A DNA stretch of 34,914 nt from Hydrurus foetidus (Eukaryota). Position 1 is the first letter of the stretch. Each line of letters begins with the position of its first letter. Both the position numbers and the translations under genes were made by a program. This document shows, piece by piece, positions 5,301-34,914 of this stretch. Below the pieces are notes generated by a model that made no database searches, was not told where the DNA came from, and saw nothing but the letters and a program-made list of their open reading frames with translations. Location of the stretch: positions 1 through 34,914 of the forward strand of contig UYFQ01000452.1 of NCBI GenBank assembly GCA_900617105.1, read 5' to 3'.

Positions 5301-8300
5301 TAATTTCATAGAAACTTGACTACTTTTTCTTCAATTAAAAGCTCAGTTTACCACTCGGGCGATTGAGCATTTCTGTCCTCGGATTTTTCGGTTTATTTGA
5401 GCCCTTGGGCGGGAATCACCCACCCTGTTGCCATCCAATCATCATAAAATACATTGCATGTTCCCCTCTCCACCATCGGCGGGGCTTTTTACTCTACAAA
5501 CTAACTGAAAACATGAAGGCAACTAAACAAAAGATAGGTAAGAATACGATTGGCAACTACGCGAAGCAGATCGCCGGGCATCTTGGCTTGGAGGAGCCCT
5601 CGAGATACACCTCCCATTGTTGGAGGCGCAGTGGGGCCAGCTCACTTGCTGAGCGCGGCGCCAACGAGCGAGAGCTACAGACTACCAGGAATGGGGCTTC
5701 AGACAAAGTTGCCGTGAGCTACATTTCAGGATCCATCGCCTACAAGAGGAAACTCGCTAATGTGCTGGCCCTGCAGGAGGGGGAGGAAGACGGTCCACGA
5801 CCGCCACCTGCCGCCCAAAAATCCTGCAGCTCCAACGCCCCACCAAAGCCTCCCATCGCAAAGTCATCACTGCCACCTGCAACAATTGTGTTTTCAATCT
5901 TGCACCCTTAACAACATTGCCTCTCACACCCTAAAATTCCTCACCTCTAGTACTTCGACTCAAACACATCTTTAGACGCCACCAAACAATGGAAAGAAAT
6001 CTCAGTTTCGCACGTAATTTCATAGAAACTTGACTACTTTTTCTTCAATTAAAAGCTCAGTTTACCACTCGGGCGATTGAGCATTTCTGTCCTCGGATTT
6101 TTCGGTTTATTTGAGCCCTTGGGCGGGAATCACCCACCCTGTTGCCATCCAATCATCATGAAATACATTGCATGTTCCCCTCTCCACCATCGGCGGGGCT
6201 TTTTACTCTACAAACTAACTGAAAACATGAAGGCAACTAAACAAAAGATAGGTAAGAATACGATTGGCAACTACGCGAAGCAGATCGCCGGGCATCTTGG
6301 CTTGGAGGAGCCCTCGAGATACACCTCCCATTGTTGGAGGCGCAGTGGGGCCAGCTCACTTGCTGAGCGCGGCGCCAACGAGCGAGAGCTACAGACTACC
6401 AGGAATGGGGCTTCAGACAAAGTTGCCGTGAGCTACATTTCAGGATCCATCGCCTACAAGAGGAAACTCGCAAATATGCTGGCCCCGCAGGAGGAGGATG
6501 AGGAAGACGGTCCACGACCGCCACCTGCCGCCCAAAAATCCTGCAGCTCCAACGCCCACCAAAGCCTCCCATCGCAAAGTCATCACTGCCACCTGCAACA
6601 ATTGTGTTTTCAATCTTGCACCCTTAACAACATTGCCTCTCACACCCTAAAATTCCTCACCTCTAGTACTTCTACTCAAACACATCTTTAGACGCCACCA
6701 AACAATGGAAAGAAATCTCAGTTTCGCACGTAATTTCATAGAAACTTGACTACTTTTTCTTCAATTAATAGCTCAGTTTACCACTCGGGCGATTGAGCAT
6801 TTCTGTCCTCGAATTTTTCGGTTTATTTGAGCCCTTGGGCGGGAATCACCCACCCTTTTGCCATCCAATCATCATGAAATACATTGCATGTTCCCCTCTC
6901 CACCATCGGCGGGGCTTTTTACTCTACAAACTAACTGAAAACATGAAGGCAACTAAACAAAAGATAGGTAAGAATACGATTGGCAACTACGCGAAGCAGA
7001 TCGCCGGGCATCTTGGCTTGGAGGAGCCCTCGAGATACACCTCCCATTGTTGGAGGCGCAGTGGGGCCAGCTCACTTGCTGAGCGCGGCGCCAACGAGCG
7101 AGAGCTACAGACTACCAGGAATGGGGCTTCAGACAAAGTTGCCGTGAGCTACATTTCAGGATCCATCGCCTATAAGAGGAAACTCGCAAATATGCTGGCC
7201 CCACAGGAGGGGGAGGAAGACGGTCCACGACCGCCACCTGCCGCCCAAAAATCCTGCAGCTCCAACGCCCCACCAAAGCCTCCCATCGCAAAGTCATCAC
7301 TGCCACCTGCAACAATTGTGTTTTCAATCTCGCACCCTTAACAACATTGCCTCTCACACCCTAAAATTCCTCACCTCTAGTACTTCGACTCAAACACATC
7401 TTTAGACGCCACCAAACAATGGAAAGAAATCTCAGTTTCGCACGTAATTTCATAGAAACTTGACTACTTTTTCTTCAATTAAAAGCTCAGTTTACCACTC
7501 GGGCGATTGAGCATTTCTGTCCTCGGATTTTTCGGTTTATTTGAGCCCTTGGGCGGGAATCACCCACCCTGTTGCCATCCAATCATCATAAAATACATTG
7601 CATGTTCCCCTCTCCACCATCGGCGGGGCTTTTTACTCTACAAACTAACTGAAAACATGAAGGCAACTAAACAAAAGATAGGTAAGAATACGATTGGCAA
7701 CTACGCGAAGCAGATCGCCGGGCATCTTGGCTTGGAGGAGCCCTCGAGATACACCTCCCATTGTTGGAGGCGCAGTGGGGCCAGCTCACTTGCTGAGCGC
7801 GGCGCCAACGAGCGAGAGCTACAGACTACCAGGAATGGGGCTTCAGACAAAGTTGCCGTGAGCTACATTTCAGGATCCATCGCCTACAAGAGGAAACTCG
7901 CAAATATGCTGGCCCCACAGGAGGGGGAGGAAGACGGTCCACGACCGCCACCTGCCGCCCAAAAATCCTGCAGCTCCAACGCCCACCAAAGCCTCCCATC
8001 GCAAAGTCATCACTGCCACCTGCAACAATTGTGTTTTCAATCTTGCACCCTTAACAACATTGCCTCTCACACCCTAAAATTCCTCACCTCTAGTACTTCG
8101 ACTCAAACACATCTTTAGACGCCACCAAACAATGGAAAGAAATCTCAGTTTCGCACGTAATTTCATAGAAACTTGACTACTTTTTCTTCAATTAAAAGCT
8201 CAGTTTACCACTCGGGCGATTGAGCATTTCTGTCCTCGGATTTTTCGGTTTATTTGAGCCCTTGGGCGGGAATCACCCACCCTGTTGCCATCCAATCATC

Positions 8301-11300
8301 ATAAAATACATTGCATGTTCCCCTCTCCACCATCGGCGGGGCTTTTTACTCTACAAACTAACTGAAAACATGAAGGCAACTAAACAAAAGATAGGTAAGA
8401 ATACGATTGGCAACTACGCGAAGCAGATCGCCGGGCATCTTGGCTTGGAGGAGCCCTCGAGATACACCTCCCATTGTTGGAGGCGCAGTGGGGCCAGCTC
8501 ACTTGCTGAGCGCGGCGCCAACGAGCGAGAGCTACAGACTACCAGGAATGGGGCTTCAGACAAAGTTGCCGTGAGCTACATTTCAGGATCCATCGCCTAC
8601 AAGAGGAAACTCGCAAATATGCTGGCCCCGCAGGAGGAGGGAGGAAGACGGTCCACGACCGCCACCTGCCGCCCAAAAATCCTGCAGCTCCAACGCCCCA
8701 CCAAAGCCTCCCATCGCAAAGTCATCACTGCCACCTGCAACAATTGTGTTTTCAATCTCGCACCCTTAACAACATTGCCTCTCACACCCTAAAATTCCTC
8801 ACCTCTAGTACTTCGACTCAAACACATCTTTAGACGCCACCAAACAATGGAAAGAAATCTCAGTTTCGCACGTAATTTCATAGAAACTTGACTACTTTTT
8901 CTTCAATTAAAAGCTCAGTTTACCACTCGGGCGATTGAGCATTTCTGTCCTCGGATTTTTCGGTTTATTTGAGCCCTTGGGCGGGAATCACCCACCCTGT
9001 TGCCATCCAATCATCATAAAATACATTGCATGTTCCCCTCTCCACCATCGGCGGGGCTTTTTACTCTACAAACTAACTGAAAACATGAAGGCAACTAAAC
9101 AAAAGATAGGTAAGAATACGATTGGCAACTACGCGAAGCAGATCGCCGGGCATCTTGGCTTGGAGGAGCCCTCGAGATACACCTCCCATTGTTGGAGGCG
9201 CAGTGGGGCCAGCTCACTTGCTGAGCGCGGCGCCAACGAGCGAGAGCTACAGACTACCAGGAATGGGGCTTCAGACAAAGTTGCCGTGAGCTACATTTCA
9301 GGATCCATCGCCTACAAGAGTAAACTCGCAAATATGCTGGCCCCGCAGGAGGAGGATGAGGAAGACGGTCCACGACCGCCACCTGCCGCCCAAAAATCCT
9401 GCAGCTCCAACGCCCACCAAAGCCTCCCATCGCAAAGTCATCACTGCCACCTGCAACAATTGTGTTTTCAATCTTGCACCCTTAACAACATTGCCTCTCA
9501 CACCCTAAAATTCCTCACCTCTAGTACTTCGACTCAAACACATCTTTAGACGCCACCAAACAATGGAAAGAAATCTCAGTTTCGCACGTAATTTCATAGA
9601 AACTTGACTACTTTTTCTTCAATTAAAAGCTCAGTTTACCACTCGGGCGATTGAGCATTTCTGTCCTCGGATTTTTCGGTTTATTTGAGCCCTTGGGCGG
9701 AAATCACCCACCCTGTTGCCATCCAATCATCATGAAATACATTGCATGTTCCCCTCTCCACCATCGGCGGGGCTTTTTACTCTACAAACTAACTGAAAAC
9801 ATGAAGGCAACTAAACAAAAGATAGGTAAGAATACGATTGGCAACTACGCGAAGCAGATCGCCGGGCATCTTGGCTTGGAGGAGCCCTCGAGATACACCT
9901 CCCATTGTTGGAGGCGCAGTGGGGCCAGCTCACTTGCTGAGCGCGGCGCCAACGAGCGAGAGCTACAGACTACCAGGAATGGGGCTTCAGACAAAGTTGC
10001 CGTGAGCTACATTTCAGGATCCATCGCCTACAAGAGGAAACTCGCAAATATGCTGGCCCCGCAGGAGGGGGAGGAAGACGGTCCACGACCGCCACCTGCC
10101 GCCCAAAAATCCTGCAGCTCCAACGCCCCGCCAAAGCCTCCCATCGCAAAGTCATCACTGCCACCTGCAACAATTGTGTTTTCAATCTCGCACCCTTAAC
10201 AACATTGCCTCTCACACCCTAAAATTCCTCACCTCTAGTACTTCGACTCAAACACATCTTTAGACGCCACCAAACAATGGAAAGAAATCTCAGTTTCGCA
10301 CGTAATTTCATAGAAACTTGACTACTTTTTCTTCAATTAAAAGCTCAGTTTACCACTCGGGCGATTGAGCATTTCTGTCCTCGGATTTTTCGGTTTATTT
10401 GAGCCCTTGGGCGGGAATCACCCACCCTGTTGCCATCCAATCATCATGAAATACATTGCATGTTCCCCTCTCCACCATCGGCGGGGCTTTTTACTCTACA
10501 AACTAACTGAAAACATGAAGGCAACTAAACAAAAGATAGGTAAGAATACGATTGGCAACTACGCGAAGCAGATCGCCGGGCATCTTGGCTTGGAGGAGCC
10601 CTCGAGATACACCTCCCATTGTTGGAGGCGCAGTGGGGCCAGCTCACTTGCTGAGCGCGGCGCCAACGAGCGAGAGCTACAGACTACCAGGAATGGGGCT
10701 TCAGACAAAGTTGCCGTGAGCTACATTTCAGGATCCATCGCCTACAAGAGGAAACTCGCAAATATGCTGGCCCCGCAGGAGTAGGAGGAGGAAGACGGTC
10801 CACGACCGCCACCTGCCGCCCAAAAATCCTGCAGCTCCAACGCCCCACCAAAGCCTCCCATCGCAAAGTCATCACTGCCACCTGCAACAATTGTGTTTTC
10901 AATCTCGCACCCTTAACAACATTGCCTCTCACACCCTAAAATTCCTCACCTCTAGTACTTCGACTCAAACACATCTTTAGACGCCACCAAACAATGGAAA
11001 GAAATCTCAGTTTCGCACGTAATTTCATAGAAACTTGACTACTTTTTCTTCAACTAAAAGCTCAGTTTACCACTCGGGCGATTGAGCATTTCTGTCCTCG
11101 GATTTTTCGGTTTATTTGAGCCCTTGGGCGGGAATCACCCACCCTGTTGCCATCCAATCATCATGAAATACATTGCATGTTCCCCTCTCCACCATCGGCG
11201 GGGCTTTTTACTCTACAAACTAACTGAAAACATGAAGGCAACTAAACAAAAGATAGGTAAGAATACGATTGGCAACTACGCGAAGCAGATCGCCGGGCAT

Positions 11301-13419
11301 CTTGGCTTGGAGGAGCCCTCGAGATACACCTCCCATTGTTGGAGGCGCAGTGGGGCCAGCTCACTTGCTGAGCGCGGCGCCAACGAGCGAGAGCTACAGA
11401 CTACCAGGAATGGGGCTTCAGACAAAGTTGCCGTGAGCTACATTTCAGGATCCATCGCCTACAAGAGGAAACTCGCAAATATGCTGGCCCCGCAGGAGGG
11501 GGAGGAAGACGGTCCACGACCGCCACCTGCCGCCCAAAAATCCTGCAGCTCCAACGCCCACCAAAGCCTCCCATCGCAAAGTCATCACTGCCACCTGCAA
11601 CAATTGTGTTTTCAATCTCGCACCCTTAACAACATTGCCTCTCACACCCTAAAATTCCTCACCTCTAGTACTTCGACTCAAACACATCTTTAGACGCCAC
11701 CAAACAATGGAAAGAAATCTCAGTTTCGCACGTAATTTCATAGAAACTTGACTACTTTTTCTTCAACTAAAAGCTCAGTTTACCACTCGGGCGATTGAGC
11801 ATTTCTGTCCTCGGATTTTTCGGTTTATTTGAGCCCTTGGGCGGGAATCACCCACCCTGTTGCCATCCAATCATCATGAAATACATTGCATGTTCCCCTC
11901 TCCACCATCGGCGGGGCTTTTTACTCTACAAACTAACTGAAAACATGAAGGCAACTAAACAAAAGATAGGTAAGAATACGATTGGCAACTACGCGAAGCA
12001 GATCGCCGGGCATCTTGGCTTGGAGGAGCCCTCGAGATACACCTCCCATTGTTGGAGGCGCAGTGGGGCCAGCTCACTTGCTGAGCGCGGCGCCAACGAG
12101 CGAGAGCTACAGACTACCAGGAATGGGGCTTCAGACAAAGTTGCCGTGAGCTACATTTCAGGATCCATCGCCTACAAGAGGAAACTCGCAAATATGCTGG
12201 CCCCGCAGGAGGAGGAGGAGGAAGACGGTCCACGACCGCCACCTGCCGCCCAAAAATCCTGCAGCTCCAACGCCCCACCAAAGCCTCCCATCGCAAAGTC
12301 ATCACTGCCACCTGCAACAATTGTGTTTTCAATCTCGCACCCTTAACAACATTGCCTCTCACACCCTAAAATTCCTCACCTCTAGTACTTCGACTCAAAC
12401 ACATCTTTAGACGCCACCAAACAATGGAAAGAAATCTCAGTTTCGCACGTAATTTCATAGAAACTTGACTACTTTTTCTTCAACTAAAAGCTCAGTTTAC
12501 CACTCGGGCGATTGAGCATTTCTGTCCTCGGATTTTTCGGTTTATTTGAGCCCTTGGGCGGGAATCACCCACCCTGTTGCCATCCAATCATCATGAAATA
12601 CATTGCATGTTCCCCTCTCCACCATCGGCGGGGCTTTTTACTCTACAAACTAACTGAAAACATGAAGGCAACTAAACAAAAGATAGGTAAGAATACGATT
12701 GGCAACTACGCGAAGCAGATCGCCGGGCATCTTGGCTTGGAGGAGCCCTCGAGATACACCTCCCATTGTTGGAGGCGCAGTGGGGCCAGCTCACTTGCTG
12801 AGCGCGGCGCCAACGAGCGAGAGCTACAGACTACCAGGAATGGGGCTTCAGACAAAGTTGCCGTGAGCTACATTTCAGGATCCATCGCCTACAAGAGGAA
12901 ACTCGCAAATATGCTGGCCCCGCAGGAGGAGGAGGAGGAAGACGGTCCACGACCGCCACCTGCCGCCCAAAAATCCTGCAGCTCCAACGCCCCACCAAAG
13001 CCTCCCATCGCAAAGTCATCACTGCCACCTGCAACAATTGTGTTTTCAATCTCGCACCCTTAACAACATTGCCTCTCACACCCTAAAATTCCTCACCTCT
13101 AGTACTTCGACTCAAACACATCTTTAGACGCCACCAAACAATGGAAAGAAATCTCAGTTTCGCACGTAATTTCATAGAAACTTGACTACTTTTTCTTCAA
13201 CTAAAAGCTCAGTTTACCACTCGGGCGATTGAGCATTTCTGTCCTCGGATTTTTCGGTTTATTTGAGCCCTTGGGCGGGAATCACCCACCCTGTTGCCAT
13301 CCAATCATCATGAAATACATTGCATGTTCCCCTCTCCACCATCGGCGGGGCTTTTTACTTTACAAACTAACTGAAAACATGAAGGCAACTAAACAAAAGA
13401 TAGGTAAGAATACGATTGG
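1835..13419 (+). repeat. Tandem array: 16 full units of 713-717 bp plus a 142-bp partial unit; each unit is the YR 3' half, trailer and left hairpin arm
   Basis: Unit starts at 1835, 2549, 3264, 3981, 4698, 5412, 6126, 6842, 7556, 8269, 8984, 9700, 10414, 11131, 11844, 12561 and 13278. Units differ by only a few SNPs and indels, mostly in a GAG-rich tract. Confidence 0.98.
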
Positions 13420-13561
13420 TGACTAAGCCCTCTGACTCAAAAACACAGAAATAACCTCTGACAGAAAAAGCTCAATTACGCCCTCGTGGTGAAAATAGCT
13501 ATTGGAGGTGCTCAACTCTAAAAAAGAGTCAACTTTTGCATCAGTAACTAGGAACAGATTT
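13149..13561. repeat. Imperfect long inverted repeat (3' hairpin of YR element 1): arms ~13149-13276 and ~13427-13561
   Basis: Left ACCACTCGGGCGATTGAGCATTTCTGTC pairs with right GACAGAAAAAGCTCAATTACGCCCTCGTGGT. TTGACTACTTTTT pairs with AAAAAGAGTCAA. A CTCG/CTCG internal mismatch is present. Confidence 0.8.
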
Positions 13562-14237: not shown

Positions 14238-15771
14238 TAATTGGAGGATAAACCTTTATGGTGGTTCCACCTCCACCGTCGCCGACCCTTTGTTTGCGGG
14301 GGCTTGAGTGTACATCGGTGACATGACCTTTTTTCGTCCAACTATTCACTTACTGTTCAATATGGAACCACAGCCATTCAGCTCACATTATCTCAATCAT
14401 CTTTCCACGCTGTTGCAAAACGTTCTTTGATTATGAATCTACCACTCAGTACCTCTACTGACCAGAACGAGAAAATTGTAAAGTTGAATAGTGGTCGAGA
14501 TTTTGCTGCAAACGTAGTATTGACTACTTTTTTGCTTGATCATGTCTAGGACCACACGATGAACAATCTTTTCGCTCTATCCTCCTACAGACACTCGTAG
14601 CATCTTCTTTAACATTACTTTCCACGTAATTGCGATTGTCCAGCACGCCTGTATAAGCCCATCATTTTTAAATTAGTGATTTTTACTTTCACCACCGATT
14701 TTTGCAGGTTGCATCTCTCGCCATCGAATTGTGCGCTTACTAAGTCGCAATTAGGTTTGTCGTCCTAGTCCAGTTACCAATCGTCAGTAGTCGATAACTA
14801 CTCTCTGTGATGAGCTGAAATGCTTCGTCCATCACGAAAATCATAACTTCCGATTCGATAAATTAGCTCTGCATCAAGGACTCACTATATTTAAGAAATC
14901 CATCGAGCAGTTTGGATGCACGATAGTCCTAGTGGGCTCCAAAGGTTATAATAATGTAGAAGAGTTTATGGATCTGTCGGCGAAGAGTAGAGGAGCGGGC
15001 ATTATCTTTTAAACTGGGACATTAAGTGATCAGACCACTCTTGACTACTTAGATTTAGAAATTCATCGAATAGTGACTGTACTGATGTACAGAACATTCA
15101 AGCTTGAGTCACAGTATGTTTCAATCAGTCAGATTTATGGTGTTCTGTGGCTGAGACAAATGAATGATGTATGCGAAGCATCAGAGCCGAGCAGGAAAAG
15201 GATAAAGAAAGGGGAAGAAATAGGTTATAGGCAGATACTAAGATATGGAAAGCAAGTGTATGAGTATGTAGCAGACACTATATGTGCTGTTGATGAGTCA
15301 CCAACTATATACATCAACGCAGCAGTGAAAGAGTTTTCACCACGGAGCACCACCGAACTCAAAAGTGTCCGTCGTAACATTTTCATTGATGACGATGATG
15401 AAATCGACAAGGAGCTTTCACAGATTTCACTTGATCCCGCTGTAGTAGAGACTCTGGGTAAATTTCCTAATAAGAACATCAAATTTAAGTTGCATGAGAT
15501 TCAGATGGTTATTGCGTTATTCGACTCCGTAACGACAGCACAAATTGAGTTGCAAGGGATAGAATACAAAATGGATACTCATGCAACTGCTACATTCACC
15601 AAGTTGATTATATCTAATTACACGCGTTATTCTGAGTTAGTGGTCGAATCGTTTGTCAGATGGGTAGTTGGTAGGGATGTTGTGAGAAAAGTATCTGGTC
15701 GAAAAATCTCAGTTGAGTTTGAGGCAGATGTCTGGGGAAAGTTAAAGATATATGAAATCGAGCAAAAAAAT

Positions 15772-19271: not shown

Positions 19272-19628
19272 AATTTCTCGCTGTGGCTTGGTTCACAATA
19301 AACAGACCTTCAATTTGTGCCACCCAACTCGTGATGAGACGCTGAAATGGTTGTGCAGTAATGTGGAGAGTGGAGTGAGTCGATAAGTTGTTATGTACCA
19401 GCTTTCGGGCAAAAAGAAGTTCAAATGTCACCGAGATTCCGCAAATAAAGGATCGGCGACGGTATGTAATAAATGCCAAATAATACGGAGCTAGATTTGC
19501 AGGGATTAGCTGTTATTTCAGTCATTCTCGTACCGTTGCCTTCCCTTTGTTTGCGGATTTCCTGTGACATAGAACTCCTTTTTGTCCGATTTTCAGTTAT
19601 TTCTAAATATCGAACAGCAGTCATTCCC

Positions 19629-21109: not shown

Positions 21110-21710
21110 GAAATCATCTTTCTTGCTACTGAATATAACGACATTCAGTGCATAACCACTTCAGGCGTGTGAAGTGTCACCATCACATAAACAGCATTCA
21201 AAGGTTACAGTGTGCAGCAGATTTAGTCACAGAATTATTGCACAGCTTAGTCGTCGTCTAAGCTAGGATGAGGTTCAAAGTAATGAAAGTGCTACAGATC
21301 ATATCAGCAAGGAGGGAAGAATTCTAAACGCGGAGGTGTTCAGTCTAGAGACAGGGAAGGACAGAAATCCTCCATCACATTGGGGTATAGACAGGGGAGT
21401 TTACGGCATCACACTACAGAGATGCATTCGAATTCTACAAGTCAGAAATGTACAGAAACTTTGGGCAGCGATTCGCCTCGCTTACAATCAGCGTCGAAAT
21501 GTTAGATTCAATCAGCAGCGAAAAGTTACAGCATACTCTGCTTGAAAATATTTCACAAAAAAAATAGCGCCTGGGAATTCGTGACTGCCAACCATGCGGA
21601 TTATGCATGTTCCGTTTCAGCCGGCAAGTCGAGCCTCTCCTAACTTTGTTCCCTTTGTCCAAAGCGAAGAGTCCACTGGCTCGGCAGTCGAAGTCAAATA
21701 TCCGAAGCAT
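21110..21710 (-). pseudogene. Unknown convergent second gene of P2 (fragments)
   Basis: FDFDCRASGLFALDKGNKVRRGSTCRLKRN (~21610-21698) and NLLHTVTFECCLCDGDTSHA*SGYALNVV (~21135-21225) match the P1 fragments in the same order. Confidence 0.65.
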
Positions 21711-21980
21711 GATTGATACGTGTGATAAAATTTAAGATGTCAATTTTAGAATCAACCTGATCTCGTGGCCTGCGGCACATTTCAAATTTCGCTTTGATGT
21801 AACAATCATCAACCAAATCTGTCCATAAAATGACATCATCACCATCCCCAGAGAAATTGATGAGCTCGAAACGTACCGTGTCGAAAATGATGACGACGTC
21901 TTCTGAAACTTCCAGCGATGCAGTCAGGTATCAGATAAAAATTTCCTTTCATTGAAATGAGATAGGAGTCAGATAGTAAT

Positions 21981-22148
21981 TTCGTACCGAGGCCAGAAAC
22001 GAGGCTTGTTTTTCTGACCGAGGGGTCTTTTTGCGGCTCAAAAACGCCCCGAAGGGCTCCCGCAGGGTGACGCGAGGGCGTTTTTGAAACCGCAAAAAAA
22101 ACCCGAGGTCAGAAAAACAACGCCGAGTTTCTGTGCCGAGTGTACGAA
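21981..22148 (+). repeat. 168-nt rod-like hairpin with four symmetric CGAG-type internal mismatches and a C-GCA-G tip
   Basis: Paired stems TTCGTAC/GTACGAA, CAGAAA/TTTCTG, TTGTTTTTCTGAC/GTCAGAAAAACAA, TTTTTGCGG/CCGCAAAAA and TCAAAAACGCC/GGCGTTTTTGA. CGAG faces CGAG at 21988/22137, 22000/22124 and 22019/22104; CGAAG faces CGAG at 22050/22073. Confidence 0.92.
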
Positions 22149-22493
22149 TATTTCTTTCCATACCAGGTACAAAATACGGATTTAGTATCAAGGTCGAACA
22201 TATGTATTTGAACTTTTTTCGCTGTCGCCCACCTGCAGGGTTGCTTATGCATCTGTTTCGGGCCCCACGCTCGTGGGTTCGAGGCCCGTTTGTCCCCTGC
22301 GGAGGCCGGGCTTTCTCACCCGACAATTTTCACCCGGTGGTTCGCCGTTTTCCTCCTCAAATCCTCTAATGCAAAATTGTTTCGTATTCATTCTTTCATT
22401 AGCCATGAATTTATTTAGCGCAACCCAATTTATTTTTTCCCCAAAATTGACTAATGTTCATAGAAACGATTGAATTAAAGTTTACATAATGTT

Positions 22494-23836
22494 TCAGGAT
22501 TTGTATTCAGTAGGACTGTAGGTTACATTGTTGCAATTATTGAAGGTAATATTAACTACAGTTCCTTTGTGAGTGTTGCTACTGGAGCTCGTTGCTGTAG
22601 ATGTGCTTTGACTGTTGTTTTGAGTATTGTGGACACTCATGTCGTTGTAGGTCCTCTTTCTCAAGACTGTTCCACCTTGTCCCCGCTGAAGTCCACCAAG
22701 TGATAGGATGTCGGCGCCTCCCTGCTTCATGTGGTCCGAATGATCGATGTATCTCTGTGCAACCATATCGCTCTTGTGTCCCGTTACCTGCTTTATCGCA
22801 GCCAATTGCATGCCGGCTTCTGCGCAAATTGTGGCACACGTCCGGCGGAAAGTGTGGCCTGTGTACAGGTTGGCATCCAGCAGGCCAAGTCTTGTCGCGA
22901 TGCGCATACCCGTCTTTGCCGTGATGTTGTGCCCGATGACTTGTTTCGTGCCCTTGATGCTGAATCCATTCTGCGAGGCAGTAAGCTTCCTGAAATATCT
23001 CCCCTTCTTGACAGCCATTTCGAAGGCTTTCTCGTACTCGAAGAAACCTCAACTTCCAGCGCCCCCGTTATCAAAGCCTGACTCTGCTCAGGCACTCCTT
23101 TCTGTTTGGTGCGCAGATACTTGACGAGAATCTTCACCTCTCCAGTATCCTGACTCACAGTTCGCGAGACATCTTCAAACGTGACCTTAATGATCTCGGC
23201 TCCTCTACCACCGAAAGATAATCCTATAACTGAGTATGCCGTGTCAGCAAGGTTTTCTGGCGTACGTGGCATTTGGTAAAATCTTACCAGCTCTTCCTTG
23301 GTGAAAACCTTCGCTTGCTTCGCTTGCTGCTGCTGCTTCTACTTCGTGGCGATGTTCGCTTCGAGCTGCGGCGCGATAGCCTTCAAATCTGTGTACCTCA
23401 CAAATTTCCAAAATTTCCTGTATACCGACAGCCAACTCCTTAGAGTTGTCGCCCGGTATCGGTCCGTGCCGTCGGCATTCTTTTCGTTGAGTTTAAGATG
23501 GAAATATGCATTGAGCTGTTGCTCCAATGTCATGTCGCTTGTGTTCTCGCTAATATAATCCACAAAATCTTGAATTTTCTCCCATGTACGCTTTTTTGGA
23601 GTGGAAGTTCTGCATGATTTCCACCCAGGATAGGCAGTTTTGTCCTATGTCAATCTCGTTAATTTTGCGCCTGATCTCTCCTAGAAGTCATTACGTGGAC
23701 AGTTTTCATCGTTTTCAAAATTGTCATCGTTATTGAAATTCATCCAGTCATCGTCGTAGTTTGTTGAATCGTCCTCCACTAGAGGCTGCTGTTGGGATTC
23801 ACTTTGGACCTGAGATAGATCCTCGTTGAACTGCAT
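22494..23836 (-). pseudogene. Crypton-like tyrosine recombinase (YR2), disrupted but with catalytic residues intact
   Basis: GGRGAE (R), LRTK (K), HTFRR (HxxR), GHKS (H) and AQRY (Y); the tail reads ITFNNCN. In-frame TAG at 23339-23341 aligns with a W in YR1. There is a frameshift near 23046. The acidic N-terminus from the ATG at 23836 is degraded. Confidence 0.88.
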
Positions 23837-24907
23837 AATTGTAGTTTAATACGTAAAACTTCCGTAGCTTCGTCTCCAGCTATAGGTAATACTTCCTTTC
23901 AATTATAGGGTTGCCGATTGATTATAACCATAATCGACCGGCAATTTGAGTGTGAGCGGTCAATTATGAAATTCCGGTCACAAAAAAGTCTTAGGTCCAA
24001 TAAACCTAAAATTTGAGTGGGTCTCTAGGCCTCACAAAGGAGTATTTCGTACCTACAGGTATGAAAAGTTAAATAACTCTCTATTTAGAATTGCAGGGCT
24101 CGCTATATTGATGATTTTTTAGTGCTGTGAGTGCGAAAGCTCCATCATGGACAAAAAGGAGTCCTATGTCACGGGTACACACTAGGGGTTCTGGCTAGGC
24201 TAGATTTTGCCGCCTAGCCCTAGCCAGTGGCTAGGCTAGATGTATGGCTAGATTTTGTCGAAAAATCTAGCTCAACTAGCCCGGCTGGCTAGCTTTTATT
24301 TTTTTCTGGCTGGCTAGCTTTTCTTTGGAAAGCTAGCCATAGCAAATCAGATGGCAAGTTGAAGATCATCTAGATGATGGTTACACTATTTTGATTGGAA
24401 ACGCTTCTTCTCCTCTGTCCGCGCAACTCATCTCGCTCTCAACAATCAACAACTCATCAACTGCAGAGAACAGCAATCAATCTCCGAATTCTCAAGCCTT
24501 CATCGTCTATCCAGTTGACGTGCCATCCATCCCGTCACGGATTCTGTGATCATTGTGCTCAAAAGGTAACAAAATTTACGCTTGCAAGTGCCACATCTGA
24601 AATCATGATTGCTTTTGAATTTCGAAGCATAACTAACACAGATCTCGTCGAATTAAATCTCCAGTTGAATCTACAGTCGCAATTAGTTGGAGAGCCTGTA
24701 ATTCTTAGTCGGTAGCCTTCATTTCGAAGCCAAAGTTTTCAAAGCTACCTGAAGGTTGCGACGTGTATTTTGTGTAGTGGAGACCATTTATTGCTGAAAA
24801 TTGTGCAGAATTTCTAACTGTGTCTATTTAACATGAAGTCACTGACTGTAATAAAACGCTGGCAAAATTTGGAACTCAGATTCAGCAACGATATTCGTCA
24901 AAGTGGG

Positions 24908-27579
24908 ATGGCAGACTTTCCTGGTCTTATATGTGAAGAACCAAGTTGCGTGGCGCACGTCCATGATGAATGTTATCATTGCAAGAAGTCGTTGTGCATC
25001 ATCTGCGTAGATGTTCATCACTGTCCGAATGCACCATGCTCATCAAATTCAGCTTCCGCAGCGAATCAAGTTCCATCTGCTGTGGCTGTGACTGCAGTCG
25101 CTGTCTCCACCGCCTTCGCTCCGGCTGCACAAAGTCGAGCCGCTTTCGAGAGAAATAAGAAAAGAGCAGTACTGGATCTCCTTGCACAGGAGTCTAATAA
25201 ATGTCCTAAATATTCTGCCACCGATTCTTTTGTTGATGTTCGTACCTACCCCTTAACGGTGATGACCACTTCAGTTAATCGATCTTGGCTTTGGAATAAC
25301 TTTAAAAGAATAATAGTAAAAGTAGGTACACCTAAAATAGTGACTTGGGCGGATTCTCATGCAGCATGCAACATTTGTTGCGAAAAAGCGCTAACGGATG
25401 AGAATATAAAGTGGGCTGTTTCGTATACCTCTCAACACAGTCCAGGTCATCTGGAGAGACACGTGAAACAGTATCACAACGAAATCATCGTTGGACGTAG
25501 AAAAGACTTAGCAGTTGAAGAAATGCAATGGAAGTCCATCACATCGTATTTCAAAAAGCATGCAGACATTGAGGAACGTTACTTAAAGTGGGCTGTTCAC
25601 ACCTTTCAGCCTCTGAACACGATAGAGGGGGAGCATTTCCGAGCGATGTGTCGGTCTCTTAGCCCAGAAGCTCCTATCCTGACAAGCTTCAGCGTCATGA
25701 AAAGATTGCTGCAGATGCAGGCAAATATCAAATTTCTCTTCCGGAAGGCTTTAGAGGGCCAGCACATGGCAATAACTTTAGACCACTTGACAAGTATCGC
25801 TATTTCTTTTCTTTTCTTTTCTTTTCTTTTCTTTTCTTTTCTTTTCTTTTCTTTTCTTTTCTTTTCTTTTCTTTTCTTTTCTTTTCTTTTCTTTTCTTTT
25901 CTTTTCTTTTCTTTTCTTTTCTTTTCTTTTCTTTTCTTTTCTTTTCTTTTCTTTTCTTTTCTTTTCTTTTCTTTTCTTTTCTTTTCTTTTCTTTTCTTTT
26001 CTTTTCTTTTCTTTCTTTCTTTTCTTTTCTTTTCTTTTCTTTTCTTTTCGTTTCGAAAATATTGTCGGGGTTGTTACCGACTCAGCGAAGGATATGAATG
26101 CTTTTGGCCGCTTTATCACTTCCACAACAACGTCACATCATAGCTGCTTCGATCACTGTCTTAGTAAGTTTAGAGTCGAATCGAATTGTATTAAATAACT
26201 AACAACGTTATTTGGTGCTGATTTTGCAAAACACTTATTAATTCTTGTTTTCTTTTTCTTTATTAGACTTGTGCACAAAACTAGCATTTCCAGATAGTGA
26301 CTTGTCAGATGGAACGATGAAGAAATGTCGCGATCTGGCGGGATACTTTACCATGTCGTGCCAAGCTGCAGAAATCCTTCGCTTAAAACAAGGACCTCGA
26401 CCACTAGATGTCGTTCAAGATGTAGCAACAAGGTGGTGGTCCACATTTTCAATGTTAGAGAGGATGCTTTATCTTAGGCCTTACTTTTCTTTAATGGTCA
26501 GAGAGGGCCCTACTTTTATCTGTCGTGAACTTGAGTGGTGAACAGTGGACTATTGTAGAAGACATTTGTATTTCAGGAATGTTCAACAGATTATGGAGGG
26601 CGAAAAGTATGTTACCATAAGCCTCATTCCAGGTACAATAATACCAAAAAATTTATGTTCTTGACAATCACTAAGCTAATTTGTTACAATTACGTCTTAT
26701 TAGGCATGATAAATCAAATCAGAGCTGGCATGATAAAAGTTGACGGCGACAATCAGAAGAGTGCTGCCGTTGCTTTGGTATTGCAAAAAATCAAGGCAAA
26801 ATTTGACGAAGAGTTCGGTACTGGAGAAGCCGGTACTGTTTTTACAGATCACATACATGGGGGACCATTTCTGAGGCTGAAGGGGTTTCCACTGAAGACC
26901 ATAATAGCTGCGGCCTTAGATCCGAGGACGAAGACTCTTGTGGGTGAGATAATTAACCATTTGTATGAACGCGCAATTGAGTGTCTTATTCATTATTCTA
27001 TAAACAATAGATATACCAGCTACCGCTGATGATCGCGAGAAGGTATGGGCATCAATCAAAGACATTATGATAGATCCCTGGGTGGCTAGCTACAACGCTA
27101 ATGTAACAGCTTCCGATGTTGCTGTATTACACGGCGCTAGAATTCTACCCGTAGAAGATGATCCATGGGCAGAGGCTAACGAAGAGGTGTCATTGCCAGG
27201 AATACCGCCTATAAATCTACATGAAGTTCACAGGAAAGTAAATGAAGAACTTGTCGAGTATAGAGCGCTCTTGAAAATTGATATGAGAGAGACTCTAGAG
27301 AATGGCGAAAAGGGTAAATTTACCGATCCTCTACTTTGGTGGAAAAATCGTGAAAAAAACTTTCCAACATTGTCCAAAATAGCGAGAAAAATCCTCTGTA
27401 TCCCAGGCACATCTGCTCCCTCTGAGAGAGTATTTTCTGTTGCAGGACTTACTATTTCAAAACTGCGTGCTAAGCTTGATCGTGAGAATGCTTCCTGTTT
27501 GATATTTTTAAGAGACAATTGGGAGTTGAGTGAAGAGTTAAGGATATCCATGAAAAATGCTGTCAATGATGTCGCATGA
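24908..27579 (+). pseudogene. hAT transposase with three predicted introns, disrupted
   Basis: BED-like finger (CNIC...HLERHVKQYH), ITLD, VVTDS, CFDH, TRWWST, and the dimerisation domain PLLWWK...PGTSAPSERVFS. Frame-preserving introns at 26164-26266, 26633-26703 and 26944-27010. Disrupted by a microsatellite and a frameshift near 26525. Confidence 0.92.
25803..26049. repeat. (CTTTT)n microsatellite, about 49 copies
   Basis: Directly visible, with one interruption near 26011-26020. Confidence 0.98.
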
Positions 27580-27953
27580 ATGTAGCAGAATAGCAGAAAA
27601 GGTGTTTTGTAGTATCTGATTTTTTATTATATAAGAAAAAGGCTGTCGTTTTAACGAATTTCGCTCTATTTTGGTGTGTCGGCTAGACATCTGGCTAGGT
27701 TCTAAATGCTGGTGTGTGGCTAGTGACTAGGCTAGCAATTGTGTCTGGGCTAGCAATTTCGGCTAGATTTGGACGTTTTTACGGCTAGCCGGGCCAAAAT
27801 CTATAAAAAGGGCTAGCCAGAACCCCTAGTACACACACTCAACACCTCCGCAAACAAAGGGAAGGCGACGGTAGTGGCAAGATTTGTATTTTGGGGGTCT
27901 ATTTTAGGGGGACTATCATTTGGGGGGTCACAGATCCAATGAAAGGGGGACTA

Positions 27954-28427: not shown

Positions 28428-28640
28428 ATGAACTGGAAGTCCACCAAAATTGGATTATTTCGGAAAATCAAAACACGGATACTACCTGGTATCAAATTTT
28501 TTGATAGCAGGTAGCTATTTGCTGAGGTTCAAATTGGACCCCAGCGAATTGCTACCTGGTATCAAAAAATTTGAAACCAGGCAGTATCCGTGTTTTGATT
28601 TTCCGAAATAATCCAGTTTTGGTGGACTTCCACTGTTCAT
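28428..28640. repeat. Near-perfect ~210-bp foldback (palindromic MITE-like)
   Basis: TGGAAGTCCACCAAAATTGGATTATTT...CACGGATACT is mirrored by AGTATCCGTG...AAATAATCCAGTTTTGGTGGACTTCCA. Internal TACCTGGTATCAAA repeats. No clear TSD. Confidence 0.9.
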
Positions 28641-28924
28641 CTAACAGCGAACCTATACGAAAATTTTCGCACACATGCCGGTTTTTGAAAAGCGCGGTTT
28701 TGTCCCGGTATTGCTTTTGTGCCCCACGTGCACAGGAATGGATAATCTGGGTGGATCTACACCCAGCTTTGGAATTTAAGGAAATGGTAAAACCCCGTGC
28801 AAAGATCCCTGAAATTCAAAAATTCAAATAATTGCCGTAGTTATCAGGAAACGAAGTCTCACAATCGTTGCCAATTTAGTCACATTTTTTGCATCATTCT
28901 GCCCTCCAGCACCTACTTGTCACG

Positions 28925-30515
28925 ATGGCGAATCTAAATGCTGTCATAACTGCTTTTGAGTCACTGCAGAGCTGTCGTTTTGAGCCCCACTTCTCTGTTT
29001 TAATGACCGGAGATGGCAGAATCACAATACCTGCAATCGACTTTTTGTCGTTTGGTGGCGTCACTGATGTCATACTTCTGAACGACTTTGTAAGATTTAT
29101 TAAGAGAGATAAGTTGACTATGGCATTTCGTTTGCTGCTGCATCTCAAATGGGGCACTTCTCCTGGTGGCATCAACTGCAAGCTCTCATTCAACTTGCCA
29201 CTTTCGGACGTAAACCAGTTGCTGAGGAAAGAGCTTATAACTGTTATAACACCAGCTCCAATGTTACAATTCGTGGGTGATCAATTAGCGATTGCAGGCG
29301 ATCAGAATCTGAAAGTCCAATCAGAAACTATTCTCAATCTTATGATTGAGAATGACTTCGCTGCGATGGAAATCAAGATCCCACCTTCTCTGCAGAGGAT
29401 ACTGTCAAAGAAAGCAACATGTAGTTCGAAAACATCAGCGAAATATGCTTCAGCGCTCGAAAGAAGCATCTCACTCTTGATTGAGTCAACGGGATTATCG
29501 AAGAACATTAATTTACAAAATCAAGTACTACAGGATGTCCTACGAAGACTAGGAAATAAATTCGACACAAATGAAACATTAGACATGACGCAAACAATTA
29601 TATCAAATCTAAAGTGTCTAGTAAATGACATACGGGAGTTTGGGACTAATGATATCAAACAAATAAAGTATTTAGAGGGCCTGGCTCTAGCTGTATCTGG
29701 TGGCATCTCTGTGACAAAGATGATGACAGCTACGGGCCTTTCGAAGAGAACGCTTCAATATGGAAAAGAGTTAAGAAAAAAGTTCGATGAGAAAACGGTT
29801 AAAGCGAAGACTGAATCAGAAATAAGTACAGTTGCTCATATAAATTTGCTTAATGAAGATCAAGTTAATAGCGAGAGTAATGAGGACATTACAAATCAAA
29901 ATAATATTGATAGTGATTCTGAGACAGTGTATTCAGAAGAATCAATATCGGAAGATGATAATAGTGGTAAAAGAAAAAGAGCAAAGAGTGGAGAAGGTGT
30001 AAAAAAATTGAATGTCAACAGATATTGGTCATAGATTTCAAGGAAGTTTAGAAAGACTAGGAGTGACTTAATAAATGGGGTGGAAGTGCAAAGATTTTGC
30101 CACGAGAGTCAATGGGGTGGCAGGCCGGACACGTTGAAGTTATCGAAACAACAAGTCATAATAGAGCAGCCGTTAGGAGGATTCCAATATGAAAGTCTTA
30201 GGTCATATCAATACACACTAAAAGAAATGTACAGTCACTTCAAGTCGTCGGAATATGGTGCGAGACAGAGGTTGGAAAACAGCAAGAGGGATTTATCGAT
30301 AAGGAGATTTCGAGAGCTCATATGCCCCTGCATGACGCAAGCAAAGCAGAGGGATACAGCGGACGAAATAATTACAGTGTTCAAACACTGCTTAAGAACA
30401 TGGGATATCAACATGAGAAAGAAAGATCGAAACATAAGGGCATTAATTGAAAAATGCCAATTAACAGAATGTAAACAGCATCAAAAAAAATCGTCAATAG
30501 CAGAATTGTATACGA
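28925..30515 (+). pseudogene. Large ORF remnant, possibly the N-terminal half of a Sola-like transposase, truncated by the LTR insertion
   Basis: ORFs 28889-30034 and 30080-30532 share a frame and are separated by one TAG. The series RKTRSD...TLKEMYSHFK...SIRRFRELICP resembles Sola-type N-termini as I recall them. No catalytic domain is in view. Confidence 0.45.
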
Positions 30516-31074: not shown

Positions 31075-34000
31075 TCAAACCTCGGTGGTTGATCCCTCAA
31101 TATTCCTGGGAACAAAACGCGACATGTTATTGTTCCTCAAGTATACATGGAGTGCATCACAGAGCCGGAGATTCTTCCAAGGCTCCCATGTATTATGTGA
31201 GTCATCATAGTTGAGCCATTTCACATGGAACGACATCGTAGTCGGTTTCTTTTTATCACCCGAGTGATTAAGAACTTTCTCAACGAAATACTCCATGTAA
31301 TCGCGACGTGCTGTATCAGCAGGTAAGCCCATCGAAGGGTCATAATTGAATATTTTAAGATTCGTTACATGTACACTATTGTGTTTATGTGTAATTAAGT
31401 TCGCGAGAACATACTCGGATCCTTCAAAGGATACAACACGGAAAGGGCCTTTCCATTTAGTGTGTAATCGAGTTGGAGGGTGTTCTTGTTTTACCAAGAC
31501 ATACGACCCTATAGGGAACACTGTCAAACCGGATGTCGACTTTTTGTGTTTTTCATCACATTTTTGAAGTGAGTCGATTGCTGCATCGAGGACTTTGTCC
31601 TGTATCTCGATTAAATCAGCAATGTATGTTGAATTTGAAGATGATACCATTGGTAACAAATGAGGTGTTAAAATCCCTCGATTCAAATCAAGTTTATCCG
31701 CGAATAGGATAGATGCTGGACTTGCACCCGTACGTTTATTAACTGAACTATTTATAATTCGTTGTACGAACGGAATGCATTTTGCATAATGGACAAGAGA
31801 CGGTGTATCGAACACCAGTCCTTTTAAATGTCTATTTATCTCTTTATTGACTCGTTCAACAATCGCATTCTCTTGAGAGAGTAAGCTAGAGTGAGGTTAT
31901 GGGGCGTACCCGTAAGATCTAAGAACTCTTTTATGAGATCATTAGCGAAATGGGATCCACGATCCGATCTTATCATGTTTGGCGAACCGATCGACCAAAA
32001 TGTGTTAATAAACTCTCCGCTGCAGATTCGGCAGTAGCGTCCTTACACCAGAACATTTCTGTCCATCTGGAGAAGGTGTCAATTATGACGAGAATATACC
32101 CCTTATCGGGGAAAGGACCCACATAGTCAATATTCAACGTATCGAAAATTGCGTGAGTAGAAGTTGAAAAATGGGCTGCATTGATTTTCGCATCAACCGC
32201 ACTTAGTTTTTGACAACAAGGACAGTTCCGTATGTATGAACGTACGTGCTGTTTCATATTTCTCCACACTTGGTTTAGACTGTAAAGTCGAGTGAGGGTT
32301 CGGTCGACACCGTTGTGACCAACAATTGCATTGTGGCACATCTGGATATGAAGTATTTGTTCATCTGTGGCCGGTTCGATAACCGTTAAAGCCGCCACAC
32401 TTGTGGAAGAAGATGAAGATGATGATGAACAAACATCTCTGACAATTGTCAATGGTAGAGCAATTTCAGTAAGATTTGGACATAAACGTGATAGCGCATC
32501 GGCTAATTCGTTATCCGATCCTTTAACAAAATGAACGGTGAAATCGAGTTCTTGCATTGCAATGAACCACCGTGCTACCATCGAAGTAGGGTTTTGTTTC
32601 ATATATGTCAAATTCATATGATCAGTATGAATAGTGAATTTCCTATCTCGGATAAGGTAATCCAATTGTTGGCAGCAATAAAAGATAGCGTAAGCCTCCT
32701 TTTGTATTGTTGACCAATTAATCTGAGTTGCAGATAGAGATTTGCTAATAAAAGCGATTGGTTTCCATTCGTCATTAATGACTTGGAATAATACACCACC
32801 GATTCCATAATCAGATGCATCAGTATATAATCTGATGGGTGAAGTTTCATCGATGAAATACATCAATGGACAACGAGATACCGCGATCTTTGTCTCATTG
32901 AATGCGTTTGTCCCCTCGAGGGTCCAAAAAATTGGAGAGCGTTTAACCGCCTTTGGGTCCACCATCATGTGAAGTGGTTTTACCATTTCTGAGTGAAAAG
33001 GAACGAATTGACGGAAATAATTGGCCAAGCCAAGGAATCCCCGTAATGCCGTAACTACTTTGGAAGTGGAAAGTTGAGTACTGTCTCAATCTTTTCTTTC
33101 GACATGGATAAACCATCTTTGTCGATGACTCGTCCTACGTATTCGATACGTTTAAGACCGAATCGGCATTTCTTTGCTTTGAGTTTAAGATTTTTAAGTC
33201 TAAATCTCTCAAAGACTTTCCTCAAGTTCAAAAGAAACTCTGCTTCGCCCCGGCCATATACAATGCAATCGTCGAGATACATCTCGCAACAGCTGTATAT
33301 GAGACCGTGAAGGACCGTTGTCACCATCTGCTCTTGAAAGTAAGAGGGGGCACGACAAGGGCCAAAAGGCAATCTTGTGAATTGAAACACCCCCATGAAA
33401 CATATAAATGCCGTATAGATTCGGTGGGGTGTATATAAAGGAGCTTGATGGTAACCCGCGGTTAAATCCATCACCCCATAAATATCCGGTTTTCGATTAC
33501 CGATCCTCTCAAAGAGGTGTTTGATATTTGGTAGTGGAAAGGAGGCCGGCTCAATGCATTCATTGAGTGCTCGATAATCGATGCAGGTTCGATATGTATC
33601 GGCTGTCTTATTTACCATTACAGGATGACTGTAGTATGCAGCGTTCGACCTCTCGATCACACCATCTTCCAACATTTCTTCGATAGAAGTGCGGAGATAC
33701 TGTTCCTTTTTAGAGGATTGGGTCGCACTGGTGCGTGGTTCGATGGAACCTCCCATTTCTGCCGTGGCAGGTTTATCTCAAACGGCTTGAGGTCAGCAGC
33801 TTGCGGAGCTAGCTTATCACTGAATATATCAGCGAATTCAGAACAGAGAGTACGGAGATCGTTTTGAAGGCTTTCATCTCCTTCAAAATGAATCTGAGAC
33901 AAGAAATCATCCGGCCCATTGGGCGGTACATTCCGGCACGTCTTGTCACGCAAGAAAGGTGCGAAGGTATCAGTTTTATCATCGTCAATCTCGTCAACGG

Positions 34001-34867
34001 AGAGTGCGACACCGCTTGGCCATATGGCTTCCGCGTCATAGTCTGATGTAACAGTGTCCCCAGAGGTATGTGTGAGGATGGGAATCGAGTCACCATCTAG
34101 GTGCGGGGTATCACCCGTACGTTTCGCGAGTACAGTCGAGACACTGTCCAGTCGCTCACAACCCACATCACCACATGGACTTTGGGTAGCTACTCCCTTG
34201 GTACCATCCTGGGTAACGTTACACGTGAACGTTGTATGACAACCTGACCCTACGACTTCCTTGGTTAGAGGTGCGTGCAGAATGGCCTTCTTAGGTGTTG
34301 GCTTTGGGCATAGACCGTATGGTTCTTTCCGATCCGAAAGTTTTGCTTTTGTGTGATACCCTTTAACATATCGTATGTAGGTGTAATCGACTCTACTTCG
34401 GTTCTTCGGGTATGAAAACCCTCAGATATCATACGTCTGGTGTATTTGTGCCAGTGAAGCGGGTCAAGCTTGGCTATCGCTTCCCTTTCTTCAAACTCGA
34501 GCCAACGAGCATCACGCTTCCTTTTGTTCTCGGCACTAAGCTCGGGAGAAATGCCAAAAGCGAAAGGTGTTAATGACATAAAATCATATTTATTTACAGT
34601 TTTTCGACTTAATAAAAGTTCAATGTCTGTGTTCCTATTAACCCGCATCGTTAAAGGGATGGTATGACATTCGCCGTCATAAGAATGAAATTTAAGAATT
34701 AAATCAATCATTTCGTTATTTATATAGCACTGGCCATCGAGACCAGAGCAAACAGTAATGGCTTTAGAAGCTGTATAACAGTTATGTTTAGCATTCAATT
34801 TATCAATCATAGTGAAGGAAATAAAATCCTCGGAGTAATTGGCGGTATCGAGTACGGCCTTGCCCAC
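31075..34867 (-). pseudogene. pol: pol polyprotein, frameshifted
   Basis: Protease VLDTA; RT CIDYR, DLTAGYHQ, LPFG and YLDD; RNase H TDAS, KEAYA, TDH and ADALSR; integrase HHCC, IDYVGP and WKGPF; chromodomain YFVEKV...VKWLNY...TWEP. Frame breaks near 34265, 33720, 33055 and 31990. Confidence 0.95.
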
Positions 34868-34914
34868 AATGCGTCGTACGCTAGATTGGCGCTCCTTATC
34901 CTTATTCTGTACCG

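Follow-up and report, generated by a model that had tools for sequence, protein, structure and literature searches.

Within the window analysed here, a stretch of 34,914 nucleotides from Hydrurus foetidus (contig UYFQ01000452.1), positions 21974 to 24066 hold a dead Crypton-like DNA transposon with a single broken tyrosine recombinase gene and no reverse transcriptase. The ends of this 2093-bp element, to which no strand is assigned, and an internal copy of the site made by joining them are predicted to fold one strand into an attachment site like attP(+) of phage CTXphi, and not to act as a template of the DIRS type. We give this reading a probability of about 0.6. Distant relatives keep the pairing with different letters, and such elements are therefore likely to move as one folded DNA strand.

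Limits and class of the element

Both ends were placed using other copies and an empty site. For the left end, contigs of four runs were aligned to 21500-24600; at least four contigs from two runs diverge from the window, two before 21973 and two before 21974 (from 24 of 76 loose-end rows). For the right end, contigs of four runs from two studies were aligned to 23960-24135, and six other flanks begin after 24062-24069. The empty site is found in all four runs, from two studies, as a contig joining the left flank to sequence from 24071. Since it shows 3-7 differences from the window over 62-65 bases, it represents a diverged allele or a paralogue. Removal of 21974-24066 leaves a stretch as long as the empty site, from which it differs at two bases immediately to the right of the break, and no target-site duplication is seen. 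The ends are thereby set at 21974 and 24066, with about one base of doubt from a single ambiguous A. The preliminary description had predicted termini at 21975 and 24068; the other copies and the empty site agree with that placement, the exact positions being slightly different. The 3-base overlap that it saw between the ends is rejected as a terminal repeat: the same trinucleotide stands at both ends in the window and with one other flank, and is missing at the remaining five right flanks. Run X3 includes one contig that hardly differs from the window and may come from the same source.

Insertions occur at many sites with unrelated flanks, in the window's family as in the related families A and B described below, and near copies are present in freshwater, sediment and air metagenomes and in one organism, with no RNA data set among the sources listed. 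Terminal direct repeats of 5-6 bp are absent, the right flanks being unlike the left hexamer. So is a terminal inverted repeat pair; the left end has its inverted partner inside the element, at 22082-22155.

The gene is a pseudogene on the minus strand (22494-23836), with stops at codons 52, 64 and 166 and a frameshift near 23045. Its C-terminal piece matches PF00589 in a Pfam profile search (E 1.9e-8). The three gene pieces match no other Pfam family, with no remnant of reverse transcriptase, RNase H or Gag, and PF12012 (DUF3504) is not matched in them at E 0.1. An intact relative of 450 residues, P0002, is 97% identical across the C-terminal piece, and the catalytic R, H-x-x-R and Y are read in its sequence. 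The nearest solved fold to the recombinase model (mean pLDDT 61) is Cre, with integron integrase at rank 30, and a sequence search of solved structures returns weak matches to Cre. Among Atlas clusters, an arthropod PF00589 group that lacks DUF3504 comes nearest (0.98, as a lead only), and clusters with DUF3504 rank lower.

Thus, the element is a Crypton in the broad sense: the recombinase is its sole enzyme, and it is interspersed in multiple copies, with empty sites, no target-site duplication and no terminal inverted repeat pair. The defining features of DIRS elements (reverse transcriptase and RNase H, Gag, inverted terminal repeats, a shared end trinucleotide) are not found, nor are those of CryptonF/S or CryptonA. 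CryptonF/S have 5-6 bp direct repeats and an extra C-terminal domain, neither of which was found here. The nearest Crypton is probably CryptonI, which likewise has one tyrosine recombinase gene, no reverse transcriptase and no terminal inverted repeats according to the available parts of PMC3212892, a likeness drawn from published descriptions. The size is also like that of Cryptons, about 1.5-2.1 kb, with full CryptonI of 1528-1980 bp (PMC3212892, in part). In the same portions of that source, no terminal direct repeats are reported for CryptonA and CryptonI, with supplement 1 listing "n.d." for all, and for animal Cryptons no terminal repeats of either kind are reported and a double-stranded circle model is cited. 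A hairpin and an internal copy of the junction do not appear in those portions (PMC3212892), whereas the window's element has both.

The window also contains other mobile DNA, of kinds that point to a eukaryotic host. A pogo/DDE_1-type family lies around 16575 and 19473, with common inverted ends at 14270-14302, 19439-19587, 24149-24175 and 27845-27877; the pogo-type end at 24149-24183 is polymorphic among aligned contigs. A broken chromodomain Gypsy retroelement occupies 31075-34914 on the minus strand (reverse transcriptase, RNase H, integrase and chromodomain pieces), and Pfam also detects hAT pieces within the window. Open frames at 24833-26143 (436 codons) and 28889-30034 (381 codons) have no convincing Pfam family, and a palindrome with 99-bp arms is found at 28434-28632. 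Within the element itself, a subterminal unit of about 130 bp on the plus strand (22241-22372) is tandemly repeated in a related genome: contigs of run X3 carry joints from 22370-22372 back to 22241-22242, with very high summed depth. This repeat is possibly a satellite or a non-autonomous derivative born of the element.

Joint site, internal copy and terminal hairpin

When reverse-complemented, 22142-22177 can be aligned both to 24042-24075 and to 21972-22001, which confirms the earlier claim that an internal segment is complementary to both termini. The left-end match is the base of a hairpin at 21975-22155, and the informative part is 22156-22177, the 22 bases just beyond it. Among 4315 plus-strand windows of the 34.9 kb, the best partner of these 22 bases is the exact right end, with a duplex energy of -13.5 kcal/mol (next, -12.2) and an alignment score of 25 (next, 21), and the alignment stops at 24066. 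Shuffled versions scored as well in 6 of 2000 cases within the element and in 0 of 2000 at the terminus. The right-end match is therefore beyond chance. That it could be chance complementarity beside an unrelated miniature inverted-repeat element has in its favour the small margin across the window (-13.5 versus -12.2 kcal/mol). However, besides the shuffles at the terminus, hairpin and gene have one boundary pair and one empty site, and the layout recurs in nine families; with the empty site, this recurrence and the own-copy matrix presented below, we count the explanation as refuted.

The right end that pairs with the internal segment is 24042-24066 on the plus strand. It is an imperfect palindrome (24045-24053, four bases, 24058-24066), whose second half is the right arm, 24058-24066, GGTATGAAA. 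At the other extremity, the plus strand begins with the hexamer TAGTAA (21974-21979), followed by the left arm TTTCGTACC (21980-21988), a predicted recombinase half-site that matches the reverse complement of the right arm at 8 of 9 positions. When left and right ends are joined, 24058-24066, 21974-21979 and 21980-21988 make two inverted 9-base arms around six bases, and the hexamer is the predicted spacer, or crossover region. A start in TAG recurs in six single-copy relatives, and families A and B start with TTG or TTA. Core sites of tyrosine recombinases have 11-13 bp arms and a 6-8 bp spacer (PMC3212892, in part), and the joint is, as predicted from sequence, a recombinase site of this arm/6-base spacer/arm form.

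The internal copy is a second such site, inverted, on the minus strand (22141-22164): 22141-22149 pairs with the left arm, 22156-22164 with the right arm, and 22150-22155 faces the spacer, mismatched. An extension of the complement (22165-22177, minus strand) pairs with 24042-24054. As computed on the plus strand of a circle, the arms of the two sites pair, and their spacers, which are unlike each other, stay mismatched. The near-continuous pairing proposed in the preliminary description does not hold: arms pair, but immediately past the joint the bases show mismatches or bulges, in the window and in eight other families. At 24064, most other copies have a G that pairs with the internal segment, whereas the window's A does not.

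The terminal hairpin (21975-22155, plus strand, 180 bases) has a computed energy of -63.5 kcal/mol (z -9.5), and none of 200 shuffles was as stable. It contains three tandem G.A/A.G mismatches, each with CGAG facing CGAG (21988/22137, 22000/22124, 22019/22104), and a loop of the C-GCA-G type lies at 22061-22065. The CGAG context is one in which tandem G.A pairs are stable. An Rfam search gave one match, at chance level.

These marks are specific to one strand. Twenty hairpins, from the window and its relatives, were each aligned to their own reverse complement, counting Watson-Crick pairs only as matches. On the hairpin-first strand, G.A mismatches outnumber C.T mismatches 61 to 10 and tandem GA/GA outnumber TC/TC 14 to 0, the families being related, so that a binomial P for this bias overstates independence. 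The G.A:C.T bias is found with the gene on the hairpin-first strand (34:8) and with the gene on the other (27:2). Five other inverted repeats of the window, one of which is also among the 20 hairpins, give 2:3. C-GNA-G loops cap 9 of the 20 hairpins on the favoured strand, and GNNA loops two more. Other observations go the other way or show no bias: one hairpin (locus L036) has a GCAA loop on the opposite strand, four of the 20 fold better on the opposite strand, and G.T versus A.C is unbiased overall (39:29), with a reversal to 5:13 where the gene is on the other strand. C-GNA-G mini-hairpins are far more stable in DNA than in RNA (melting at 76.5 C as DNA versus 39 C as RNA, for one sequence compared) and are found at single-strand phage origins, according to the available parts of PMC13037366. 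The biased mismatches and loops support the earlier proposal that one strand folds.

They also bear on the possibility that the internal copy is a second double-stranded recombinase site, for accessory binding, inversion or resolution, its complementarity to the ends being a by-product of inverted repeated arms. The 9-base arm motif indeed occurs several times in both orientations, and gene orientation changes among relatives, as inversion could cause. However, mismatches that are stable on one strand (GA/GA 14, TC/TC 0) are useless in a duplex, the pairing spans 20-30 bases, beyond one arm, and is family-specific, and the spacers of the two sites are unlike in sequence and, for families A and B, also in length. 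We regard such a site as quite unlikely. A simpler form, in which the match is mere repetition of the 9-base arms, was dropped on the basis of the family-wide pairing, the strand bias and the own-copy matrix.

Pairing of ends and internal copy in distant relatives

Relatives were collected with a degenerate pattern of the catalytic motif, giving 42 + 2 = 44 loci, of which 39 match P0002 with 23-68% identity across short stretches. Locus scans seeded with the protein found nothing in metagenome and viral contigs, nor did scans of viral contigs with two patterns. As no close relative was obtained as a locus with its flanks, co-variation was examined on distant families (23-48% identity), the window's close copies being seen through aligned contigs only.

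A hairpin of at least 80 bases lies within 1.8 kb of the motif in 23 of the 44 loci; the 21 loci showing none include many short contigs. In these 23 loci, the 43 bases just inside the hairpin were compared with the far side of the gene, using other body segments and shuffles as nulls. Thirteen loci, from nine families, exceed both nulls (P <=0.014 for body segments, P <=0.023 for shuffles). The other ten failed this automatic test, including three without a recombinase match and L002, whose own joint displaced the probe and which passes with hand-set limits. In families A (six copies) and B (two full copies), the match stops at termini that were set independently, by differing flanks.

The joint itself was then compared, in the window and eight families, with 200 null joints each, and it pairs with the internal region better than 199 or 200 of the 200. 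In a 9 x 9 matrix, no right end has a better partner than the internal copy of its own element (-11.5 to -20.1 kcal/mol, against -9.9 kcal/mol for the strongest cross pair), the diagonal being partly circular for the six single-copy families, whose ends were chosen by the match itself. Locus L016 passed the hairpin test and was left out of the matrix because its match lies in a repeated palindrome, so that its ends could not be set. Thus, the co-variation of termini and internal segment across families, which the preliminary description had put forward as a check, is borne out in eight distant families, where the layout is kept with unrelated letters. The bases just after the joint are unpaired in all nine elements. 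Joint and internal spacers have different sequences; their lengths differ as well in families A and B. All nine elements show, by computation, the arrangement of CTXphi: two inverted core sites, a fold of one strand and a mismatched overlap.

At the start of locus L002, the last 55 bases of the right end run straight into the left end, without any intervening base, which may represent a circle or a tandem pair. Such a joint was not seen in contigs of seven runs (eight alignments), a kind of data that cannot show absence.

The orientation of the gene relative to the ends is free. It changes at least twice, and about five times on a tree of 32 rows, for which 12 loci were omitted (near-copies, non-recombinase matches or too short) and short segments dropped, and which is poorly resolved (4 of 29 branches starred). 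Orientation is not clustered on this tree (192 of 500 shuffles are as low), and one supported pair has both orientations. These observations argue against a non-autonomous DIRS-type retroelement, whose transcript would be reverse-transcribed in trans and whose internal segment would template the missing ends, since families differ in whether the hairpin strand is the sense or the antisense one. Templating would also keep exact copies of the ends, whereas the copies differ at the joint in all nine elements. The mismatches that are kept and the free orientation of the gene together contradict the templating model. The gene pieces lacking any trace of reverse transcriptase, RNase H or Gag, the lack of room for a reverse transcriptase, the missing inverted repeat pair at the termini and the arthropod PF00589 group as nearest Atlas cluster point the same way, and we consider this origin very improbable. 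The likeness to the internal complementary region (ICR) of DIRS elements that had been proposed for the segment thus stands for its complementarity to both termini; it fails in the imperfect joint, the absence of reverse transcriptase and of an end-repeat pair, and the free orientation.

Several observations on individual loci can be added. The flanks of L021 and L030 read, by eye, as fragmented eukaryotic genes, and the host of these loci is probably a gut protist. At L030:2632, a family A copy lacks the entire terminal hairpin and starts exactly at the internal complement. At L036:1605-1664, the far end enters a perfect 60-base palindrome at the contig end, which may correspond to a hairpin-closed end, a tail-to-tail pair of right ends or a fold-back of the assembly.

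The window also holds a second, distant tyrosine-recombinase element at 1275-13560, with a broken gene on the plus strand. Its hairpin-first end, with the conserved start motif, is at 13501 on the minus strand, and the bases beyond 13501 also pair by computation with an internal region, in a joint-like manner. A tandem array at 1835-13420 comprises 16 units of about 715 bp. In each unit, the internal region and one arm of the hairpin accompany the 3' half of the gene, and the break falls at the hairpin apex. Just upstream of this second gene, a hairpin with 36-bp arms and a C-GCA-G loop (1119-1204) has a GGTATGAAAA word resembling the right arm of the first element. This hairpin was rejected as the second element's end, since the conserved start motif points to 13501 on the minus strand.

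A proposed attachment site on a folded single strand

The folded-strand reading can be described in five steps. In the first, the hairpin-first strand would become single-stranded, perhaps through replication or hairpin extrusion, and the internal copy would keep both ends side by side. Next, the recombinase would cut at two points, behind the right arm's AA and in front of the left hexamer, and the ends would be joined into a single-stranded circle. In this circle, joint and internal copy would pair into a duplex in which a mismatched spacer separates two binding arms. The recombinase would then act on this fold and a site resembling (A/T)A^A in a double-stranded target, exchanging one strand pair, and the mismatched spacer would block a second exchange. 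Finally, host replication would resolve the junction, leaving no duplication and an intact second site about 170 bp inside the left end. The logic would be that of CTXphi attP(+) and of integron attC, with the element's own enzyme.

Two predictions of this model are seen, the absence of duplication and the presence of the whole spacer at one end. The model would also have the first target base pair with the internal copy. The right arm is followed by A in all seven insertions of the window's family, in five of six insertions of family A and in one of two of family B, where the other right flank begins with T. This A agrees with the internal copy, unlike the T of the left hexamer. Since the joint of family A is without that A, the target supplies it there. 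Against the model stands the fold of the recombinase: Cre, its nearest solved neighbour, acts on double-stranded sites, and IntI comes at rank 30.

The same fold could be a splint that aligns and joins the ends, the circle then becoming double-stranded and integrating by the canonical two-exchange route that has been proposed for Cryptons. Two exchanges normally need a match between spacer and target and leave the spacer at both ends, as for Cre, Flp and lambda Int. Here, the hexamer is at the left end only and the right flanks differ from it, and a pure splint would gain nothing from a kept mismatch at the joint. Integrases of the Tn916 type work without spacer identity. All pairing and strand-bias data are compatible with a splint, the joint alone is a well-formed arm/6-base/arm site, and the same route has been modelled for DIRS-1 (PMC7192593, in part). 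We nevertheless consider it unlikely.

CTXphi offers the closest parallel to the folded-strand reading. Its two inverted sites fold on a single strand, where one pair of strands is exchanged; the overlap lacks the homology needed for a second exchange, and replication completes the process (PMC3442271, in part). Inverted fold-back sites, a mismatched overlap and a second site that is internal after integration are shared with the window's element. However, CTXphi is a phage with a rolling-circle single strand, which uses the host XerC/D and the single target dif (PMC3442271, in part), whereas the window's element has its own enzyme and many insertion sites. Integron attC sites share a kept structure with varying sequence, an unpaired central spacer, one favoured strand and a site completed only in the circular cassette (PMC2727003, in part). 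In contrast to attC, the RYYYAAC and GTTRRRY boxes are absent here by direct reading, the recombinase lies within the mobile unit and is Cre-like, and the strand is marked by tandem G.A pairs and GNA loops, no conserved extrahelical bases being identified.

DIRS-1 also has an internal segment complementary to both termini near one end, a tyrosine recombinase and a single-stranded DNA intermediate (PMC7192593, in part), which for the window's element would be a putative one. Its ICR, an 88-bp exact complement, is proposed to template end restoration after reverse transcription, and DIRS-1 has reverse transcriptase, Gag and inverted LTRs (PMC7192593, in part), whereas in the window's element the hairpin is local, the copy imperfect and the orientation of the gene free. 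In bacterial SE elements, a tyrosine recombinase can circularise one strand, as predicted here, and a 6-bp terminal segment of one end enters the circle. These elements have four core genes, and their authors found no attC- or dif-like fold (PMC9345347, in part).

Full-text literature searches returned no description of this end design for recombinase-only eukaryotic elements; Repbase entries, Goodwin 2003 and subscription reviews may note hairpins. It is unmentioned in the available parts of PMC3212892 with its supplement 1, PMC13465315, PMC6681497 and PMC10104507. For eukaryotic transposons, no description was found of the folded single-strand route, known from CTXphi and integrons. The circle of Cryptons was "hypothesized, but not yet demonstrated" in 2023 (PMC10104507, in part).

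In a wider and more doubtful extension, a widespread eukaryotic class of recombinase-only transposons would move wholly as a folded strand, as the counterpart of CTXphi and integron cassettes, the DIRS ICR would descend from the same end design, and DIRS cDNA would integrate folded, with no need for a double-stranded circle. The exact ends, substrate, strand, cut position and target rule can be tested with oligonucleotides and one enzyme of 450 residues. If the folded-strand reading is true, the hairpin-plus-mirror signature would serve to locate the boundaries of Cryptons and their non-autonomous copies, the enzyme would amount to a compact single-strand integrase of low target stringency, and an origin for the DIRS ICR would be offered. 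The folded-single-strand recombination of integrons and CTXphi would then also run in eukaryotic nuclei.
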